Shown here piece by piece: positions 3,320-54,832 of a DNA stretch of 64,000 nt. This stretch comes from Ginglymostoma cirratum. Its lineage: Eukaryota. Location of the stretch: positions 18,404,215 through 18,468,214 of the forward strand of contig JAHRHZ010000058.1 in the NCBI GenBank assembly GCA_024137785.1, in the 5' to 3' direction. Numbering within the stretch: position 1 is the stretch's first letter; each line of letters opens with the position of its first letter. The position numbers were made by a program, and so were the translations under genes. Under the pieces are notes generated by a model. That model was not told where the DNA came from. It was given only the letters and a program-made list of their open reading frames with translations, and searched no databases.

Positions 3320-4790
3320 TTTAGGAACAAGGGAGCAAGATTAGACCATTCGTCCACTTCTTCAACGCTTTTTTCCCCCCACACTATCCCCATATCCCTT
3401 TACATCCATTGTTATTTAGAAATCTATCAATCTCTACTTTAAACATAATCAATGATTTGAGTTTTCACAGTTCTGTGGGGTAGAGAATTCCAAAAATTCA
3501 CAAAGATTTCTCCTTATCTTGGCCTTAAGTGGTTTGCATCTTGTCTTGAAAATGTGTCCCCTGGTTCTAGATTCCCCAACCATGTGTAACATCATACTTG
3601 CATCTATCCTGTTTAACTCGCTTAAATATTTTAAAAGTTTCAATGTGAGAACCTCATGCTTCAAAACTCTAGCAAAAACTGCCTATGTTTTCCCCAAATT
3701 CTTTTCATAGACAGTCCTGTTATGCCAGGAACAAGTCTGATGAACATTTCTTGCACTTCCTTAATGACAACCGTATCCTCCTGACTTAGACCAAATCTGC
3801 ACACAGTACTCCAGGTGTGGTCCGACCAAACTCTGATGCAATCAAAGCAAGACTTCACTACTACTCCTCCTCAAATCCTCTTGTAATAAAGGCCAGCATT
3901 CCACTTATCTTCCTAATAGCTTGCTGGACATGCATGTTTGCCTCTGACATATTGAGATTATCAAGTTACTTTATGCATCTGTACTTTCTAATTTCTCACC
4001 ATTTGAGAAATGTTCTGCATATCTGTTCCTCCTATCAAGATGGATAACTTTTTTCTACTTTATATTCCATCTGCCATACTCTTGTCCACTCGCTAAGTCT
4101 GTCCAAATCATCATGCAGTTGCTTTGCATCTGCCAGACAACACATATTGCTACTTGGGTTTATATCATCTGGGAACATTGAAATATTCCAAATCATTGCT
4201 ATCTATTGCGAACTCATCCTTGCTGTAGCCCACTAGGTGCAGTCTGCCAATGTAAGAATGACCTGTTTTATTCCTAATCTGTTTTCTGCCTAACAGACAA
4301 TCCTTAGTCCATTTCAGTAATTACCACCTATTCCATGTGCTTTAATTCTTTGGAGGACTTTATCAAAAGCCTTCTGAAAATCAAAGTGTACCATGTCCAC
4401 CAATTACCCTTTATCAATTCTGTTAGCAGCTTCCTCAAAACGCCCAACAGGTTTGTCAAACCTGATTACCATTCGCAAATCCATGTTTACTGAGCCCTAT
4501 CATGATTATTCAAGTGTCCATTTATTATATCCTTTGTAATTAGATTTTCTGTACTCTCAATATAAGAATGACAAGTCCCACAGGTCTCTGTTTCTGTTCT
4601 CTACCTCCTTAAATGGTGGGGTCACACTTCTGCCACTGAGCTGCAGGATCCATTCAAGAATCTATGGAATTTAGGAATATAATCAGCATTGCATCCACCG
4701 TCTCTGTAGTTATCTCTTTTAACACTCTGGGATGTCACATTATCAGATCCTTATGATTATCAACATTTAAACCAATTAATTTTTCTAGCA
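3320..4790 (-). mobile_element. CR1-clade LINE, decayed RT region and 3' end
   Basis: Minus-strand ORF pieces (GESRTRGHIFK, IKEVQEMFIRLVPG). Plus-strand ggactttatcaaaagccttctgaaaatcaa is the reverse of DFQKAFDKV. Confidence 0.85.
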
Positions 4791-5209
4791 TAACCGTCTG
4801 TCTAATTTTCTCATTTTCCTTGTAATTAGATACATACTTCTTTGGCATAAACTTAGAATGAATTTATTTTCTCCATATTTGGTCTCGGGAGCAGGATCTG
4901 AATATCCAGGCAGCTTCTAGCTTGCAGAACCAATCTAAAATTTTGGCACTGTACAGTGGTTTCTATCCTGGCTGCAGCACAGGGATTCATGTTGTCACTC
5001 TTGATATCTTTCAACTGCAACTCTGACCTTGTGTGGATTTCTACCTATCCTCCAGTTTCTCTGCTCTGTAATTCACCTTTGTGATGCTGTTATATTGAAT
5101 GCAAAGTTTTGCAGATTTTGGAGATCTGCAATGAAAACAAAGTGCTGGAGAAACTAATGCAGGTGTGACAGTGGCATCTGCAGAGAGATAGAGTTAATGT
5201 TTCAAATGC

Positions 5210-5650
5210 ACAGAAGTGTTATGGTGGAAAAAGAAAGCCGTTCAACCCATAAAGTCTGTACTGGCTCTCCAAATGAACACTATGATTTAGTGATATTCTC
5301 CTGCCTTTTACCCATACTCATGCACATTGGGTGATTATTTAAATAGAAACAGTTGCCTTTTGAATGTTTTAGTGTCACTGCTTCCACCACACTTCTTCCA
5401 GAATGCATCCCAGATGCCAACCACTTGTGCAACAATGTTATTTTTTTCCTTGTATCACATTTGTTTATTTTGCAAGTTGCTTAAAATCTGTGCTGTTTCT
5501 TACACATGGGAACAGTTTCCCCCATACCTATTGTGTCTAACCTCCTTGTGATTTTGAAAACTTGTATGAGATTTCCTCACAGATGTTTCTCTCAAGAATA
5601 TTTCTAACCCCTCCAACCTATCCTCATAACTGAAGTTTCTCATTCCTGAA
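5210..5650 (-). mobile_element. CR1-like 3' end fragment
   Basis: Reverse 3' tail (…aagccgttcaacccataaagtctgtactggctctcc…) and ORF2-end remnants. Confidence 0.6.
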
Positions 5651-5654
5651 GGAA

Positions 5655-6505
5655 AAAAATAGCAGGACATTTAGAAAAAAACATAAGCAAGTAGAGTCAA
5701 TGTAGTTTTGTGAAAAGGAAATATGTTTGACAAACTTGCTAGAGTGCTTTGGGGGTATAATGAGCAGACTTTATAAAGGGGAACCTGTAGATGTAGCGTA
5801 TTTGGATTTCCAGAAGGTATTCACAAAGATGCCCCACAATTTTATTGCACACGTTAAGGACTCACTGTATTGGAGAGTAATGTATTAGCATGGATTGAGC
5901 ACTGGTTAACGTACAGAAGACAGAGTCTAGATTTAATGTCTTTTTGTTCCATTTTGGAAACTAGTACAGTGCCACAGTGATCATTTTGAGTGCCTTAATT
6001 ATTTACTATCTGTATTAATGACTGGAAGAAGTCATAACTTGTTACAACTGTGAAGAGTGTTCATGAGGCTGCACCTGGCATACTGTTTTTTGTTCCCTGG
6101 ATTTAAAAAGGGATTTATTGGCATTGGAGGCTAAATTCATTAGGTTGATTCTTAGGCTGAAGGTGTTGTCTTATCAAGAATGTCTAAATAAATTAGGCCT
6201 TTATTCATTTAAAGTTTAGAAGAATAAAGCTTATTGAAACATAGAGTTCCGAGGGAGCTTTATAAGGGAATATTCATTTGATACTGAGATGTGAAGGAAT
6301 TTCTTCCAGAGAGAATCCTGTATGCAGCAGTTGCAGAAGCTGGATCAGAACACATTTAAAGAGGAGGTAGACAGATCTTTGAAATATCAAGGAGTTGAGC
6401 TAGTATGAAAGAGGAGTTGAGGTCTGGGGCAGATCATTAATGAATTTGGTGAATGGTGGGGTAGACTTGGGGAGCCAAATGGCCTACTTCTGCTTTTTCT
6501 TTCTT
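5655..6505 (+). mobile_element. CR1-clade LINE, internally deleted RT and 3' end
   Basis: tgtttgacaaacttgctagag…gaacctgtagatgtagcgtatttggatttccagaag = CLTNLLE…EPVDVAYLDFQK; tail gggagccaaatggcctacttctgct. Confidence 0.85.
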
Positions 6506-6509
6506 TTGG

Positions 6510-6800
6510 AGGGAGTGCAGAGGGTGGAAAGGGTGCAGAACATTTTCTTAATAGGGGACTTCAGTATACTTCATCAAGGATGTCGCTGCTACAGTGGGCC
6601 TGCTGCAGGTGGTGTTGGGGAACCATCAAGAGAGAAGAACGTGTTTGATCTCTTCCCAATCAAAACACCTTCCAAAGATGTGTCTGTCCATGTCTGGATT
6701 GGTGAGAGTGACCACTGCAGAGACCTTGTGAAGCTGAAATCCTGTTGACAATACCTCCATTGTGTTGTGTGGAACTACCACATGCTAAATGGGTCGACTT
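6510..6800 (+). mobile_element. LINE APE-endonuclease fragment
   Basis: ORF 6440-6748 has IGDFS…EPSREKNVFDL…ESDH, matching the APE GDFN / LDL / SDH motifs. A related piece lies at 58340-58600. Confidence 0.7.
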
Positions 6801-7074
6801 TTTGGGTAGGAGGAAGGTTTGTGGTGGAGTTCTCCTTGGCTTGGTATTCGGACTTCCTGAAGTCATATGATATAAAGCCACACAGCAGACCTGTGAGAAA
6901 ACTTATAGCTCATGGAATAAAAGTGGACAGTAACAATGTGGATACAAAATTGTTTCTAGCACTCGACAAGTGTTCAGTACATAATTTTGTTGTGCTACCA
7001 TGTTTGTTGTAAACCTGCTGCAGTACTCCAATGAAACCCAAATTAGAGGAACAACTGCTCATTTTCTGCTTTTC

Positions 7075-7130
7075 CCTCCTCCTCCTCCTCTCCCTCCTCC
7101 CTCCTCCACCTCCTCCTCCACCTCCACCCC
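7075..7130 (+). repeat. Imperfect (CCT)n trinucleotide repeat
   Basis: cctcctcctcctcctctccctcctccctcctccacctcctcctccacctcc; explains the poly-P/S/L ORFs at 7000-7284. Confidence 0.9.
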
Positions 7131-7165
7131 AACCCTCTGTCCTAGCCCATGTTTTGTTTTCAGAG

Positions 7166-7409
7166 CAAAAACAAAGTTGCTGGAAAAGCTCAGCAGGTCT
7201 GGCAGCACCTGTGAAGGAGAAAACAGAGTTAACGTTTCGGGTCCGGTGAACCTTTCTCAGAACTTGTTCTCAGAACAGTTCTGAGGAAGGGTCACCAGAC
7301 CCGAAACATTAACTGTTTTCTCCTTCACAGATGCTGCCAGACCTCCTGAGCTTTTCCAGCAACTTTGTTTTTGTTCCTGATTTACAGCGTCCGCAATTCT
7401 TTTTGGTTC
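7166..7409. mobile_element. Palindromic Penelope-like terminal cassette (family A) with a 12-bp TSD
   Basis: Inverted arms of about 97 bp (7166-7263 and 7278-7373). Direct repeat TTGTTTTCAGAG at 7154-7165 and 7410-7421. Each arm carries a hammerhead motif. Confidence 0.85.
7272..7319 (+). ncRNA. Minimal type I hammerhead ribozyme motif (G16.2 changed to A)
   Basis: AGAACAGUU-CUGAGGA-A-GGGUC acca GACCC-GAAAC-AUU^-AACUGUUUU: 9-bp stem I, 5-bp stem II. Confidence 0.75.
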
Positions 7410-8867
7410 TTGTTTTCAGAGTTTTGGTCTCATCATACCTGACCTACTTTCTGCCATTGACACCTACCATTAAAATATAATGTATAAATTGATGGAGCTA
7501 ACAGCTTTTTTTCATTAATGAAGAATTGGCATGTTATTGTGTTAACACCAATAGTACTATGGAAAAGTAAAGGTAAAAGGTTAATTCACTATCTTATGTT
7601 GGTAGTACCATTAATTGTCGCTACCAATGATAGATCTATCATTGGATGTGGACTGTGTCGAAAGGTTTGGATCTGATCTTTCTGTATTGGAACAGGGAAG
7701 TCCACAGGTATTACTTTTCACTGACGCCAGCATTTCTGCCATTAATCCATTCATCCAGCTATTTTTGTATCTGGGTTTTCTTTCATCTACTGCATGTTTT
7801 GTGTGTCACACTACCCTAATTACAAATACCATAAATTGCAGCATGCCAGTTGACCTAGGATATAAGAGCAACTCATTTCTCCAGCCTCAAAAAAATTATT
7901 TTTTTGCAGATACTTGGCATAAAGCTGACTCTTCTTTTCAGCCAAAACAGCTTTACTCACATTCTGGTTGGCCACAATTTCTTGCCCACGAATGCTTGGT
8001 TGTTTAGCTTATTGCTGGAAGCAAAGGATCGGGCAAAAGGCGCAAGCTATGTTGCTCAGATGAGCAGAAGTTTAAGACAGGCCACACGTGGCAAATCAAA
8101 TCTGGTTTAAAGCTAAAAATTGGAACATTTGCTAACATGTCCAGTATCTGCTGCAGCAAGTGAATTCAGTGGTACTTAAAATAGGGCACACATGGAAAAA
8201 GGTGTGAAGTTCAATGTAAGCTTGAAATCCAGCGTTGCCTCTTCAGTCTCAGAATTTTACAACTTTTGGGCTCTTGAGTTCAAATTTAAATGCAATCTGT
8301 ACTCCATTTTACTGTTTTATTGTTTGCTTGTTTCTTTATCCCTTCTTCATGTGTTCAGACTGCCACTGCATCGACGACTTACCTCATCTGGACACCAGCT
8401 TTGTTCCTTTACTGCCTTTGTAAAGAATAGAATTTGTGTGGAGACATGTTCAGATACCGTGTAAATGAGGTAACTGCAAAGGAATAGCACCAACATTGCA
8501 CCTAAGCCAGCGGTCTAACACCTGTAGTTCAGCCATTGGGTGTGTGATGTGACAGGCCATTCAAAGATCATATTTGCCCCTAATAAAATAGTTGTGTGGT
8601 TAACTGAGAAAGAAACCCTGACAGAATGTGGAAATATGCATACTGCCCGAATTGATACTTTGTGTCTTGTCATCTTCAAATTGTGGATGCTATCACTGCA
8701 CGAACCAGATCCTCCAACAAAAAATGGAGCACGGGAAGATGATTTCTTGACCATATTTGATTTCAAGTGGGATTGTTACAATAATGCCATAGTTAAAGTG
8801 ACTCGGAATAAATTTGTTAACTCTTTGCATCAGATGCTGACCGTGACCAATTTGATGGGTTTTAATC

Positions 8868-8968
8868 TGCTCTGAAGAGAGATCACTGGATCTGAAACAT
8901 TGATTCTGTTTTCTCTTCACAGATACTGCCAGACCAGTTGAGTTTTTCCAGCTATTTCTGTTTTTGTT
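8868..8968 (+). mobile_element. Family A single arm with hammerhead motif
   Basis: CTGAAGA-G-AGATC actg GATCT-GAAAC-ATT at 8872-8901, followed by the family A body cacagatactgccagacc…tttccagctatttctgttttt. Confidence 0.8.
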
Positions 8969-9196
8969 GACAGGTGTTGAAATGGTCACTTTGTGGATAA
9001 AGGTATTTATGCCCACGCACTCTATACAATAAGTCATTAATTTAATACAAGTGACTTTTTATTTTCAAATTTCAAAATCATGATCATCCACACCCACAAC
9101 AGTATTTTAGTATAATAAAAGAAACAAGCACGTATGCTGAAGATCTGAAACAAATTCAGAAATTGCTGGACAAAGTCAGCAAGTGTGCAATATCTG

Positions 9197-9596
9197 NNNN
9201 NNNNNNNNNNNNNNNNNNNNNNNNNNNNNNNNNNNNNNNNNNNNNNNNNNNNNNNNNNNNNNNNNNNNNNNNNNNNNNNNNNNNNNNNNNNNNNNNNNNN
9301 NNNNNNNNNNNNNNNNNNNNNNNNNNNNNNNNNNNNNNNNNNNNNNNNNNNNNNNNNNNNNNNNNNNNNNNNNNNNNNNNNNNNNNNNNNNNNNNNNNNN
9401 NNNNNNNNNNNNNNNNNNNNNNNNNNNNNNNNNNNNNNNNNNNNNNNNNNNNNNNNNNNNNNNNNNNNNNNNNNNNNNNNNNNNNNNNNNNNNNNNNNNN
9501 NNNNNNNNNNNNNNNNNNNNNNNNNNNNNNNNNNNNNNNNNNNNNNNNNNNNNNNNNNNNNNNNNNNNNNNNNNNNNNNNNNNNNNNNNNNNNNNN
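9197..9596. other. Assembly gap (400 N)
   Basis: Run of n; the ORFs spanning it are artefacts. Confidence 1.
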
Positions 9597-9697
9597 GGCC
9601 TAAACCCTTCAGGGTTTAGGCCCGAAACGTCAAGTTTTCCTGCTCCTATGATGCTGCTTGACCTGCTGTGTTCATCCAGCCCCATGCTTGTTATCTC
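9597..9697 (+). mobile_element. Family B Penelope-like terminal repeat at the centre of an inverted cassette
   Basis: GGCCTAAACCCT-tc-AGGGTTTAGGCC palindrome. 9611-9697 matches 47595-47681 with one mismatch. Confidence 0.85.
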
Positions 9698-10480: not shown

Positions 10481-10620
10481 TCAGCTCTGGAGGAGGGTTG
10501 TTGGGTTGAAACATTAATTCCGATTTCTCTCCACATGCTGCCAGACCTGCTGAGCTCCTCCAGCAATTTCTGTTTTGGATTTTATTTCTGATTTCCCGCA
10601 TCCATAATTCTTTTGACTTT
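10481..10620 (+). mobile_element. Family A single arm, hammerhead core degenerate
   Basis: gaaacattaattccgatttctctccacatgctgccagacctgctgagctcctccagcaatttctgtttt. Confidence 0.8.
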
Positions 10621-25117: not shown

Positions 25118-25212
25118 CAAACAAAAACATAAATTGCTGGAAAAGTTCAACAGATTTGGCAGCATTCGCGGAAAGAAAAAAGTTTCAGGTCCAGTGACCC
25201 TTCCTCAGCACT
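25118..25212 (-). mobile_element. Family A single arm with hammerhead motif (antisense to LAMC1)
   Basis: Reverse complement reads CTGAGGA-A-GGGTC actg GACCT-GAAAC, then a deletion over the cleavage triplet. Confidence 0.8.
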
Positions 25213-30289: not shown

Positions 30290-30957
30290 GTGAGTGCAGA
30301 ACTGTTCAAAACAGAATTTATTTTGGTAATTGTGTGCACAGTTGTTGTACCATAACATCTTGGGGGAAAATGCCTCAATGATGTGCTTTATACAGGTTTT
30401 GTTATGTCAGAGCTTTGGCTATGTAGAAGCTTTGGTTAATTTATAAACTTTGCTTCCCTGAAGATCTGAAATCTCGTTGAACTAGGACTGCGAAATGACA
30501 CGGTGGTGGAGTCCAAAGAATTGAGATGATCTCATTCCTTTGAGACTATGAAGATGAATCAATCTAATGAATGTTTCTCTATTTGCATCTGTCTCTATCT
30601 TCCTTTATTTATTTTATAAGATATTAGATTGCAACCCTGTACAGGTTCTGTAGCTGTGCTGTTGAATTTACAAAATGTCAGTCTCCCATTCTGGTCAAGT
30701 TTTTTGTTTCTTTATTCATTCATGGGATGAAGGCATCTCTGGCTAGGCAGCATTTATTGCCCATCCCTAATTGTCCAGAGGGCAGCTAAGAATCAACTGC
30801 ATTAACATGAACTCTTTAAACTGAATCCAATGTTTGATAAGAGTCTACTGCTCCCAACCATGTCCGTAGCTGCACTGAAAATTCATTCCATCGAAAATTT
30901 TCTTGTTGGAGGGCAATGGAGGAAGACCCAGTGCTCTGCAAACAGTAAAATGAAAGA

Positions 30958-31085
30958 AAGGACTGCAAATGCTACAGATCTAAAACAGAAAACTGAAATC
31001 GCTGGAAAAACTCAGCGGGTTTGGCTGCATCTGTTGGACTGAAAGCAGAGTAAACATTTCAAGTCTGGAGACTCTTCATCAGAAC
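30958..31085 (-). mobile_element. Family A single arm with hammerhead motif (antisense)
   Basis: Reverse reads GTT-CTGATGA-A-GAGTC tcca GACTT-GAAAT-GTT. Confidence 0.8.
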
Positions 31086-34807: not shown

Positions 34808-35360
34808 TAGAAAATGCCGAAAATACTCAGCAGGTCAGTCAGCCTCTGCAGAGAGAGGAGTAGTCAGTATTTCGGTTAGATGTCACATCAGAACATGGAA
34901 ATATACAGAATGAAAGAAGAAAAGGGAAGGCCTGTGATAGAGCAAAAATGCAAATGGTTAAATAACAAAGCAGCTGATGATACAAGACAAGATAGAGTGG
35001 CAATGGAGCAAGAAAAAAATAAGGTATCTTCTTATCCAAGCTATAACGCTTTTCAATTCTGTCGAAAGGTCACTGACTTGAAATAAAAATGGGAATTGCT
35101 GGAAAAACTCTTCAGGTCTGGTAGCAACTGTGGAGAGAAAACAGAGTTAACATTTCAGATTCAGTGACCTGGATCTGAAACATTAACCCTCCTTTCTATC
35201 TGCAGATGCTGCCAGATCTGCAGGGTTCTTCCATCAATTTCTGTTTTTCAGTATCTAAGTCTTTTTTTCTGTTGTTTAGTGTCACTGACTGGAAATGTTC
35301 ATTCTGATTTACTGTCCACGTGCTGCAAGAAGAATTGAGTATTTCCAGTGTTTGCTTTCG
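34808..35360. mobile_element. Older family A inverted cassette containing a nested younger palindromic cassette (35085-35280)
   Basis: Outer arms at about 34808-34895 (minus) and 35057-35084 plus 35281-35360 (plus). Inner palindrome flanked by GTCACTGACT(T/G)GAAAT at 35069-35084 and 35281-35296. Confidence 0.75.
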
Positions 35361-43711: not shown

Positions 43712-43869
43712 ATAGCCAGAACTGCAGGGCTGGAGTCAGACAATACAGTGTGGAGCTGGAGGAACACAGCAGGCCAGGTAGCATCAGAGGAGCAGGAACG
43801 TTGACGTTTCAGCTCAGGACCCTTCTATGTTATTGCTGTGTTCTTCCAGCTCCACACTGTATTGTCTCT
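43712..43869. mobile_element. Family B inverted cassette with an 8-bp TSD
   Basis: 33-bp inverted repeat 43738-43770 / 43835-43867 (1 mismatch). TACTGAAG at 43704-43711 and 43870-43877. Minus strand keeps stem II remnant plus GAAACGTC. Confidence 0.8.
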
Positions 43870-44990
43870 TACTGAAGTCTATCAGTACTATACAAATTTG
43901 TGTTGACCTTACACCGCTTAACAAAGTGATGCAAAGGGAAATCCATCCTATGTCTGTGGCTGGTGGAAGTTTAACTAAGCTGTCTCAAAGGAGAATTCTC
44001 ACAACTCGGATGTAAATAGTGCATGATGGCGTGTGCCATTGACCAGCAAGATTGCTTACTATGTTCAGAACTCCACTTTGAGAGAGTTTGTTTCAATGGA
44101 CTGCAATTTGGGATGATCTTGGCCCCAGAGATTTTTCAGTAGACTGTTTCCATTTTACAAGTCTTCATAGAATCATATGCCCCCTGGTTGTTTTATTGAT
44201 ACACAGTGGCACAATGGCCAGCAAACCACACTCCGCATAGCCAGATCCAACAGGAATAGTTGAAGATCTAGAGGTATCACAACATCCATTGATGTTATGT
44301 TGAAACTTGTCCAGATTGAAGTCCCAGCAGGGATGCTTTTGAAAACCTATTATGAGCATTGATCCTGTTTTATAATTTTGGACAATATACCAGTGTATCA
44401 TAAGTGACTGGTCGTTCCAATTTCACTTTCAGTCCAGGAGCACTTGTGAATCACCAAGTGCCAAGCCAGAGCTTGGTCAGCATTGTGGTGACCAGGGATC
44501 TCTAAGGATATTGATGATTTCATTGTTTATTGTGAGTTGCTTCAAATCAACAACGTATATTGAGACCCTCCCATTTCCTACTAGATGGAAGATATGGGCA
44601 TTTGTTTTTGATGGAAGATCTCCCCTAATTGCTGCAGATTATTTCTGTTTCCTTTTATTGCAAAGAAACATCACATGATATTTCAAGGATAGGTCCAGGG
44701 GAAATAAAAACCAAGTCAGGGGGCAGATTTTGAACTGTGACCAAACGTTAAGTCAAAAGAAAAGGGTTTGAAGTGATCTTTTTTAAAGGTGGCAGAAGAG
44801 ACGGTAAATTTTAGGGATGGAGTTCCATAGAACGTGAAAGACTGGCGCATCATTTTTGTATTTAAGTCCATGTAGATTTAATTCCAATAAAATAATACAA
44901 AACTAACATTGTTCACCTGGTCTATGCATATTTTCAACGTTTTTGAAAGTTTAATGTGTTTGCAGCTAACTTTTGGTCATGCCTCCATAG

Positions 44991-47565: not shown

Positions 47566-47586
47566 ATCTCAGAATCCATTTGACAA

Positions 47587-47681
47587 TCTGATGAAGGGTT
47601 TAGGCCCGAAACGTCAAGTTTTCCTGCTCCTATGATGCTGTTTGACCTGCTGTGTTCATCCAGCCCCATGCTTGTTATCTC
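47587..47681 (+). mobile_element. Family B single arm (about 95 bp) with TGACAA target duplication
   Basis: TGACAA at 47581-47586 and 47682-47687; near-identical to 9611-9697. Confidence 0.85.
47588..47615 (+). ncRNA. Minimal hammerhead ribozyme core, fully canonical; stem I poorly supported
   Basis: CUGAUGA-A-GGGU uuag GCCC-GAAAC-GUC^ with palindromic ACGU stem III. Confidence 0.75.
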
Positions 47682-54689: not shown

Positions 54690-54832
54690 GCTAACGTGGC
54701 ATATAAACCAACATTTTCCGAGGTACCATCAGTTCTGAGGAATGGTCACCGGACCTGAAAATGTTAACTCTTATTTCTCTCCACAGATGCTGCCAGACCT
54801 GAACTTTTCTAGCAATTTCTGTTTTTCTTTCT
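54690..54832 (+). mobile_element. Family A arm with hammerhead motif
   Basis: AGTT-CTGAGGA-A-TGGTC accg GACCT-GAAAATGTT-AACT at 54731-54769, then the family A body. Confidence 0.8.

Follow-up and report, generated by a model that had tools for sequence, protein, structure and literature searches.

Within a 64,000-nt stretch of Ginglymostoma cirratum DNA (contig JAHRHZ010000058.1; hereafter the window), copies of a hammerhead-like motif differ in the sequence of their second stem and still pair. The copy at 8872 raises the question of whether its stem II, in which two G-C pairs are replaced by A-U, records selection for RNA structure, as the initial annotation proposed, or changes acquired after insertion. 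Our analysis indicates with high confidence that the hammerhead at 8880 is a dead copy of a minimal type I motif from the 3' end of a Penelope-like element (PLE), that its swaps are likely random post-insertion transitions, and that selection likely maintained the ribozyme fold in the active masters of several subfamilies. Such masters were few, and the counts of changes show that copies, once inserted, decay neutrally. Observed directly were the anatomy of the motif, its linkage to GIY-YIG and RT sequences, a neutral frequency of doubles inside a subfamily and, from one subfamily to another, paired changes affecting stems I, II and III.

A check of the sequence located all six stem II strings that had been quoted as covariation (Table 1), with two element families mixed among them: the string at 47596 belongs to family B and the remaining five to lineage A. 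Profile searches recovered 17 end pieces in the window. Stem II was readable by eye in 13 copies, six of which had at least one non-pairing position; the quoted set comprised six of the seven unbroken stems and omitted the six broken ones. No copy among the 13 retains its core, both stems and the palindrome of helix III at once.

Table 1. Hammerhead stems, Penelope-like end pieces and open frames, in window coordinates unless a locus is named
Feature	Position	Strand	Family	Remarks
Stem II GGGTC-ACCA-GACCC	7289-7302		lineage A	
Stem II AGATC-ACTG-GATCT	8880..8893	+	lineage A	four transitions away from the common GGGTC/GACCC, one at CpG C11.1-G12
Stem II GAGTC-TCCA-GACTT	31061-31074	-	lineage A	
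Stem II GGGTC-ACTG-GACCT	25.2 kb	-	lineage A	
Stem II AGGTC-ACT-GACTT	35067-35079		lineage A	
Stem II GGGT-TTAG-GCCC	47596-47607		family B	
Copies with broken stem II	7164-7263, 35086-35169, 43744	-		
Copies with broken stem II	10486, 35279, 54735			
Decayed minimal hammerhead	8872..8901	+	lineage A	C3 at 8872 to predicted H17 at 8901
Complete short Penelope-like end piece	8869..8967	+		hammerhead and tail, around the 8872 copy
Inverted pair of end pieces	7164..7376		S1	7164-7263 minus, 7278-7376 plus
End piece, GAGTC/GACTT	30988..31085	-		N7=T
End piece	25121..25211	-	S1	deletion after GAAA
Hammerhead fragment, AGGTC-ACT-GACTT	35059..35083	+		core broken (CTGTCGA)
End piece, GGGT-TTAG-GCCC	47587..47680	+	family B	GUC triplet
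End piece	54732..54826	+	S1	pair 1 U-U mismatch; absent from the initial annotation
Older end piece	10486..10578	+	lineage A	core and stem II broken; absent from the initial annotation
Inverted pair of 5'-truncated end pieces	35086..35247		lineage A	minus arm: stem II C-A mismatch
Old remnant	35279..35349	+	lineage A	two mismatches in stem II
Inverted pair of pieces	43738..43872		family B	minus arm: stem II G-G mismatch
End piece adjoining an assembly gap	9611..9696	+	family B	stem II intact, without CUGA
Open RT-EN frame	L210:4439-6580			714 aa; 5'-truncated, flanked by inverted 3' pieces
Open RT-EN frame	L211:4840-6789			650 aa; 5'-truncated, flanked by inverted 3' pieces

The individual copies are variously damaged. 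In the 8872 copy stem I is mismatched, the helix III palindrome is broken (ACAT in the DNA), and the predicted fold lacks stem II; the tail of this piece, of type GAGTTTTTCC, agrees with the older N7=A background. The plus copy of the S1 pair at 7164..7376 keeps stems I and II and an ACCA loop and has a broken helix III palindrome, and its minus partner carries G8>A and a mismatch in stem II. The piece at 30988..31085 probably descends from a subfamily whose master had A-U at pair 2, and its G-U at pair 1 is consistent with CpG decay, as is the G-U at 10.1-11.1 of 25121..25211. The fragment at 35059..35083 probably belongs to a 3-nt-loop subfamily with A-U at pair 1. In the piece at 47587..47680 the 5' strand of stem I was lost at the junction. 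In addition, CTGAAGATCTGAAA occurs at 9137-9150 and 30458-30471 and looks like a hammerhead with a deletion; the one at 9137, next to an assembly gap, is probably an element tail read in antisense. Gaps frequently adjoin young family B copies (window 9197-9596, and 20 of 168 family B matches), where they are probably collapsed inverted arms.

The CUGANGA-x-stem II-GAAA-NNUH motif itself is real and lies far above chance. In 604 kb of unselected DNA, 33 of 62 CUGANGA..GAAA cores closed a stem of at least four pairs, as compared to 0 of 14 in reversed DNA. The core (C3 U4 G5 A6 N7 G8 A9 ... G12 A13 A14 A15.1, with U16.1 and H17) is common to the majorities of S1-S6, B, C and D, and the same core is present at 8872-8901. 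Helix II closes on 10.1-11.1, which is G-C in most families and A-U in one, and an extra A follows A9 in nearly all A, B and D copies. The short helix I lies in the cleavage-site register, in which register 0 pairs best; it covaries in S5, C and D and has merely 2-3 pairs in one family B subfamily (B_A). A palindrome at 15.1-16.1, which would permit a helix III between dimers, reads ACGU in A, B and C and AGCU in D, and is broken to ACAU in the 8872 and 7281 copies. Judged from its sequence, the motif is a minimal type I hammerhead, likely self-cutting, at the 3' end of Penelope-like elements.

No Rfam hammerhead reached the gathering score in the window, and none was found at E up to 10 within 7100-9100; miRNA-family hairpin matches at 7230-7311 and 8871-8922 fell below the Rfam gathering score and reflect the inverted repeat. 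A phage collection yielded no match. The short predicted folds of hammerhead copies had no unusual stability (z -1.7 to +0.5). Folding of N7=T families, as at L128:1492-1531 minus and at window 47584-47620, gave an alternative, extended hairpin that covers the core and pairs CUGAUG with the cleavage-site strand. This hairpin was absent from the predicted folds of S1; in the N7=T families it could possibly represent an off state.

The origin of the 8880 double was addressed with genome-wide counts of stem II variants (4.36 Gb; pattern CTGANGAR-stem-N3-8-stem-GAAA). Strata were counted by hand among the matches listed, 100 per search. Subfamilies were distinguished by N7, by the length of the loop and by the majority sequence of their short tails. 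From a base of 25,722 RGGTC/GACCY copies, G3>A alone occurred 1,605 times, C3'>T alone 1,866 times and both together 146 times, compared with 116 expected by independence. The pooled odds ratio (OR) for pair 3, before stratifying, was 1.25 (1.05-1.49); among the matches listed, it was 1.04 (0.78-1.36) in the N7=G stratum and 0.91 (0.34-2.24) in the N7=A stratum, to which 8880 belongs. A control double at non-partner positions was more enriched (261 vs 134 expected, OR 1.94), and the pooled excess at pair 3 therefore reflects mixed ages and subfamilies. The pair-breaking A-C was about as common as the pair-keeping G-U, and pair 3 doubles bear the tail of their own background, of which there are two different ones. 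As covariation, the two G-C to A-U swaps at 8880 are consequently not above chance: the double is as frequent as independent post-insertion transitions predict.

CpG decay accounts for further differences between the copies. The second swap at 8880 hits C11.1, which forms a CpG with G12 and is T in about a third of base rows among the matches listed. The commonest S1 loop is ACCG, of which ACCA and part of ACTG are CpG products, and G-U pairs at 11.1 are, like the ACCA loop, consistent with such decay; the N7=A subfamily, though, seems to have had ACTG as its master loop. AGATC/GATCT at 8880 is likely post-insertion decay. Since doubles at the level of independence and CpG decay explain the changes, the stems at 8880, 25.2 kb and 7289 carry no covariation at the level of masters.

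It is very improbable that AGATC/GATCT came down from the master of a small subfamily in which both swaps were truly compensatory, a reading that these data already largely refute. Both changes do restore Watson-Crick pairing, and a real master with A-U at pair 1 is known in another subfamily; look-alikes with AGATC, a 4-nt loop and GATCT also made up 5 of 100 among the matches listed. However, the exact 27-mer of the 8872 copy has a single occurrence in the genome, the pair 3 doubles fit independence in both strata and on two tail backgrounds, and rough rates predict about 2-3 four-change copies in N7=A, where 3 of 30 were seen among the matches listed. The copy is, besides, damaged in helix III as well as in stem I. 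We considered, but do not claim, a distinct AGATC-NNN-GATCT master (12 of 100 among the matches listed), because a non-partner double was found in the same old subfamily too (5 of 100 among the matches listed). Rates of decay in core and tail (4.5% vs 15.8% in A, 1.4% vs 10.3% in B) were set aside as evidence because they are biased: alignments had to begin in the core, and a single copy served as the reference. Post-insertion decay at 8880 carries a wider caution: single-copy G-C to A-U 'swaps' in transposons arise by transitions and CpG decay alone, and subfamily-level counts are needed.

Paired changes of another order were found between subfamily masters. At pair 2, genome-wide, G2>A alone was counted 1,520 times and C2'>T alone 2,153 times, whereas both together were counted 2,388 times vs 127 expected (OR 18.8). 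Among 100 matches listed with A-U at pair 2, 50 had 5-nt and 29 had 6-7-nt loops, as compared to 0 of 100 listed base rows; because 5-7-nt loops are absent from the listed base rows, these doubles represent separate masters. Among the matches listed with 4-nt loops, the pair 2 OR was 13.6 (95% 2-74) in N7=T copies, the class of 31061, and 2.1 (0.6-5.4) in N7=G copies. In N7=A, G-U at pair 2 was over-represented among the matches listed (0.51 per base copy vs 0.14-0.16 for other single changes) and A-C was not, which suggests an N7=A master with a wobble intermediate at this pair. GGGTC/GACTC with N7=A was also noted at the centres of loci L188-L201, L206 and L207, likely a G-U wobble subfamily between the G-C and A-U families.

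At pair 1, 44 N7=T rows with 3-nt loops among the matches listed comprised 38 A-U, 3 G-U, 2 G-C and 1 A-C, and the AGGTC/GACCT stem was carried by 38 of the 44. Stem I, whose strands lie outside every search pattern, reads AGCT/AGCT in the subfamily with an ATCTA loop vs AGTT/AACT in S1 (upstream strand 10/11, downstream strand 9/11). Different stems I and II surround the shared core in family C (6 copies) and in family D (5 copies); at the dimer palindrome, family D carries AGCU instead of ACGU. In an alignment of 27 copies, 85.5% of cells pair vs 14-44% in slid registers, with two-sided changes in all four stem I pairs; these copies were picked by stem II patterns, which makes their stem II counts circular, and the shuffle control ignores relatedness. 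Copies of these two families, with stems of their own, were seen at L037, L067, L081, L083 and L181 (C) and at L069, L103, L185 and L203 (D).

Paired changes could in principle arise by correction of hairpins at the DNA level, through quasi-palindrome template switching, without RNA selection. The sequence of stem II is indeed quasi-palindromic over a short length, and inverted pairs are a frequent form of insertion for these elements; such correction would, however, enrich partner doubles among ordinary copies, where the within-subfamily OR is about 1, and the partners in stem I are some 35 nt distant from each other, with an invariant, unpaired core between them. We regard this origin as extremely unlikely.

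The proposal that masters were selected for RNA structure is supported genome-wide, by pair 2, the pair 1 A-U subfamily, stem I and helix III, and is not supported at 8880, where the outcome observed is the one that the initial annotation had named as refuting it. As for the six stems, pair 2 of 31061 and pair 1 of 35067 are probably two-sided master differences, whereas 7289, 8880 and 25.2 kb show the common master sequence or its decay, and the U-G at 47596 is a real family difference that is one-sided. Because just two of the six examples are probably two-sided, stem II variation in single copies is not the best internal evidence for a ribozyme that it had been taken to be; the invariance of the core across families and the covariation of stem I are better. 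Among the variants at core position 7, the N7=C copy, at 35059, has a broken core.

By analogy with published hammerheads of PLEs, the master RNA is predicted to cleave slowly, after GUU in lineage A or GUC in family B; U at 17, as in lineage A, gives a slower triplet. Cleavage might take place in a dimer held by the ACGU palindrome, or might be helped by the element's protein. Since the core is shared by families with different helices, selection on chemistry is the easiest explanation. The fold could instead have been selected as a protein-binding or transcription/RT signal, with catalysis weak, dispensable or lost. The genomic copies here, which retain an uncleaved junction, would suit such a signal, as would the U at 17 of lineage A and the very short stem I of some families, and hammerhead mutants of the anole element are reported to have had no effect on insertion in vitro, where cleavage needed protein (PMC11167929). 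We consider a signal without catalysis unlikely, given that all catalytic core positions are common to families whose three helices differ entirely and that related motifs are described as cleaving as dimers or with protein (PMC4209133, PMC11167929).

The hammerhead was found in the terminal part of an element with RT and GIY-YIG domains, on the same strand; for lineage A, EN alone was seen upstream. A Pfam search for GIY-YIG gave 96 matches among the 150 scored of 22,577 candidates, and in 10 of 12 fetched loci a same-strand family B hammerhead lay about 400 nt downstream of the match. Family S1, the lineage of 8880, lies downstream of a related EN at loci L007 and L010. In the long family B frames of 714 and 650 aa, GIY-YIG scored above the Pfam curated cut-off and RVT_1 below it (E 2.6e-5 and 1.4e-5), and the linker between RT and the C-terminal EN is CX4CxxC, of the Neptune/Nematis type (CNRRKCYTC, CNQRRCNAC). 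Family B looks young. Neither a complete pLTR-ORF-pLTR element nor, within ten long loci, a direct 5' pLTR came to light, and lineage A itself yielded no RT. Short end pieces predominate: a set of 155 lineage A copies comprised 10 long ones, 41 short ones with an inverted arm and 104 that were short and solitary, 11 of the last having a clear target-site duplication. Family B pieces were also seen inside or adjoining other end pieces (L208:2030-2152 minus; L170; L020; L112), which suggests insertion into earlier copies.

The 5' ends of the copies are tightly positioned. Short copies begin 3-5 nt ahead of CUGA, about 30 nt past a conserved TATA-like box (for example at window 7277, 8868, 54731 and 47584, and at loci L002-L031, L208, L209 and L210); starts at the cleavage site are very rare. 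Among family A copies with an intact core, 33 of 35 share 0-6 nt with the upstream repeat and 0 of 35 share 9-60 nt. In unselected copies anchored on the tail alone, with 14 B copies beside assembly gaps set aside, a start at -8..0 was found for 14 of 21 A copies and for 31 of 66 B copies, whereas one A copy and no B copy started within 3 nt of the cleavage site. Contigs from four public, presumed-RNA runs reproduced this step, their loose ends falling 3-5 nt ahead of C3, although contigs, the form of all 19 runs consulted, cannot show ends or strand. In long copies of S1, S2, S3, S5 and B the TATA-like box stands about 29-31 nt before the A at -4. No excess of a cap-derived G was found at the 5' junction (G at -5 was 0.18 in 104 solo copies).

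Other accounts of the boundary fared less well. A pile-up of 5' ends at the cleavage site is absent, the starts at 32-34 adjoining gaps or pivoting on an AAGCTT palindrome. A splice acceptor is less likely: lineage A has CAG with a pyrimidine tract, but family B lacks AG there, and short copies have no common upstream exon. Because short copies start before CUGA and almost never at the cleavage site, uncleaved RNA is suggested as the template.

Going solely by motif position, we lean slightly towards a transcription start about 4 nt before CUGA, which would place the ribozyme at the very 5' end of the RNA. On this view the many 95-135 bp copies would represent reverse transcripts that began internally and ran off the 5' end of uncleaved RNA. 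A fuller version is more tentative still. The hammerhead may form the first ~38 nt of a TATA/initiator transcript, so that cleavage sheds the cap, and the hundreds of thousands of ~95-135 bp pieces may be strong-stop-like run-offs, which would record retrotransposition of uncleaved RNA only, together with the G-C/G-U/A-U master series at pair 2. The start site would limit stem I to 4 bp, and cleavage would convert an mRNA or template into a spent or circular RNA. For Penelope of Drosophila, the promoter is described as TATA-less (PMC2377424). The clustering of 5' ends at stem I is relevant to what role PLE hammerheads play. In family C a TATA-like box stands further upstream, at about -48, and copies keep more than 40 nt ahead of the core.

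The 8880 finding is an ordinary one, from a known kind of element, hammerheads with covarying families having already been published for PLE terminal repeats (PMC4209133). The metazoan minimal hammerheads of PLEs (Cervera and De la Pena, 2014; PMC4209133) are described there as sharing the type I layout, the 4-bp helix I, the extra nucleotide between 9 and 10.1, the absence of a real helix III with a palindrome at 15.2-16.2, the mostly solitary truncated copies, the opposite-strand pairs and the many consensus families. Helix II has 4-5 bp here vs 7-8 in that report; one subfamily here has A10.1-U11.1 vs G-C there, and lineage A has U17. Pattern-perfect copies number at least 35,000 here vs 4,000-9,000 given there for coelacanth and Xenopus, and cartilaginous fish are absent from the parts of that paper covered here. 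In this genome, hammerhead masters form a dated series of very large size.

The EN+ PLEs of the Neptune clade (Craig et al., 2021; PMC8557442) are reported to share the order of RT, CX2-5CxxC linker and C-terminal GIY-YIG, as well as 5' truncation, inverted 5' arms and an optional 30-40 bp tail; the elements here are Neptune-like, as far as the linker motif and host type, the bases for this placement, can tell. The hammerhead of Poseidon from Anolis (PAc; Frangieh et al., 2024; PMC11167929) belongs to a different clade. PAc is described as starting RT internally, downstream of the hammerhead, at two sites, with both strands primed, and as using unprocessed RNA as the insertion substrate; the 3' ends of the copies here, which cluster near +95 and +130, resemble its two start sites. 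In the sections of that paper covered here, neither a genomic accumulation of 5' ends at stem I nor a TATA-like box lying 30 nt upstream is described for PAc.

Supplements aside, no account of PLE hammerheads in sharks, or of a start site located at stem I, turned up in the literature searched. The non-LTR retrozymes of a recent preprint (Li et al., 2026; bioRxiv 10.64898/2026.07.22.740005) are described as having type I hammerheads related to PLE pLTRs and were found in the single chondrichthyan sampled. Retrozymes form tandem arrays, whereas no tandem array of hammerhead units occurs within the window, where the copies are solitary or in inverted pairs.
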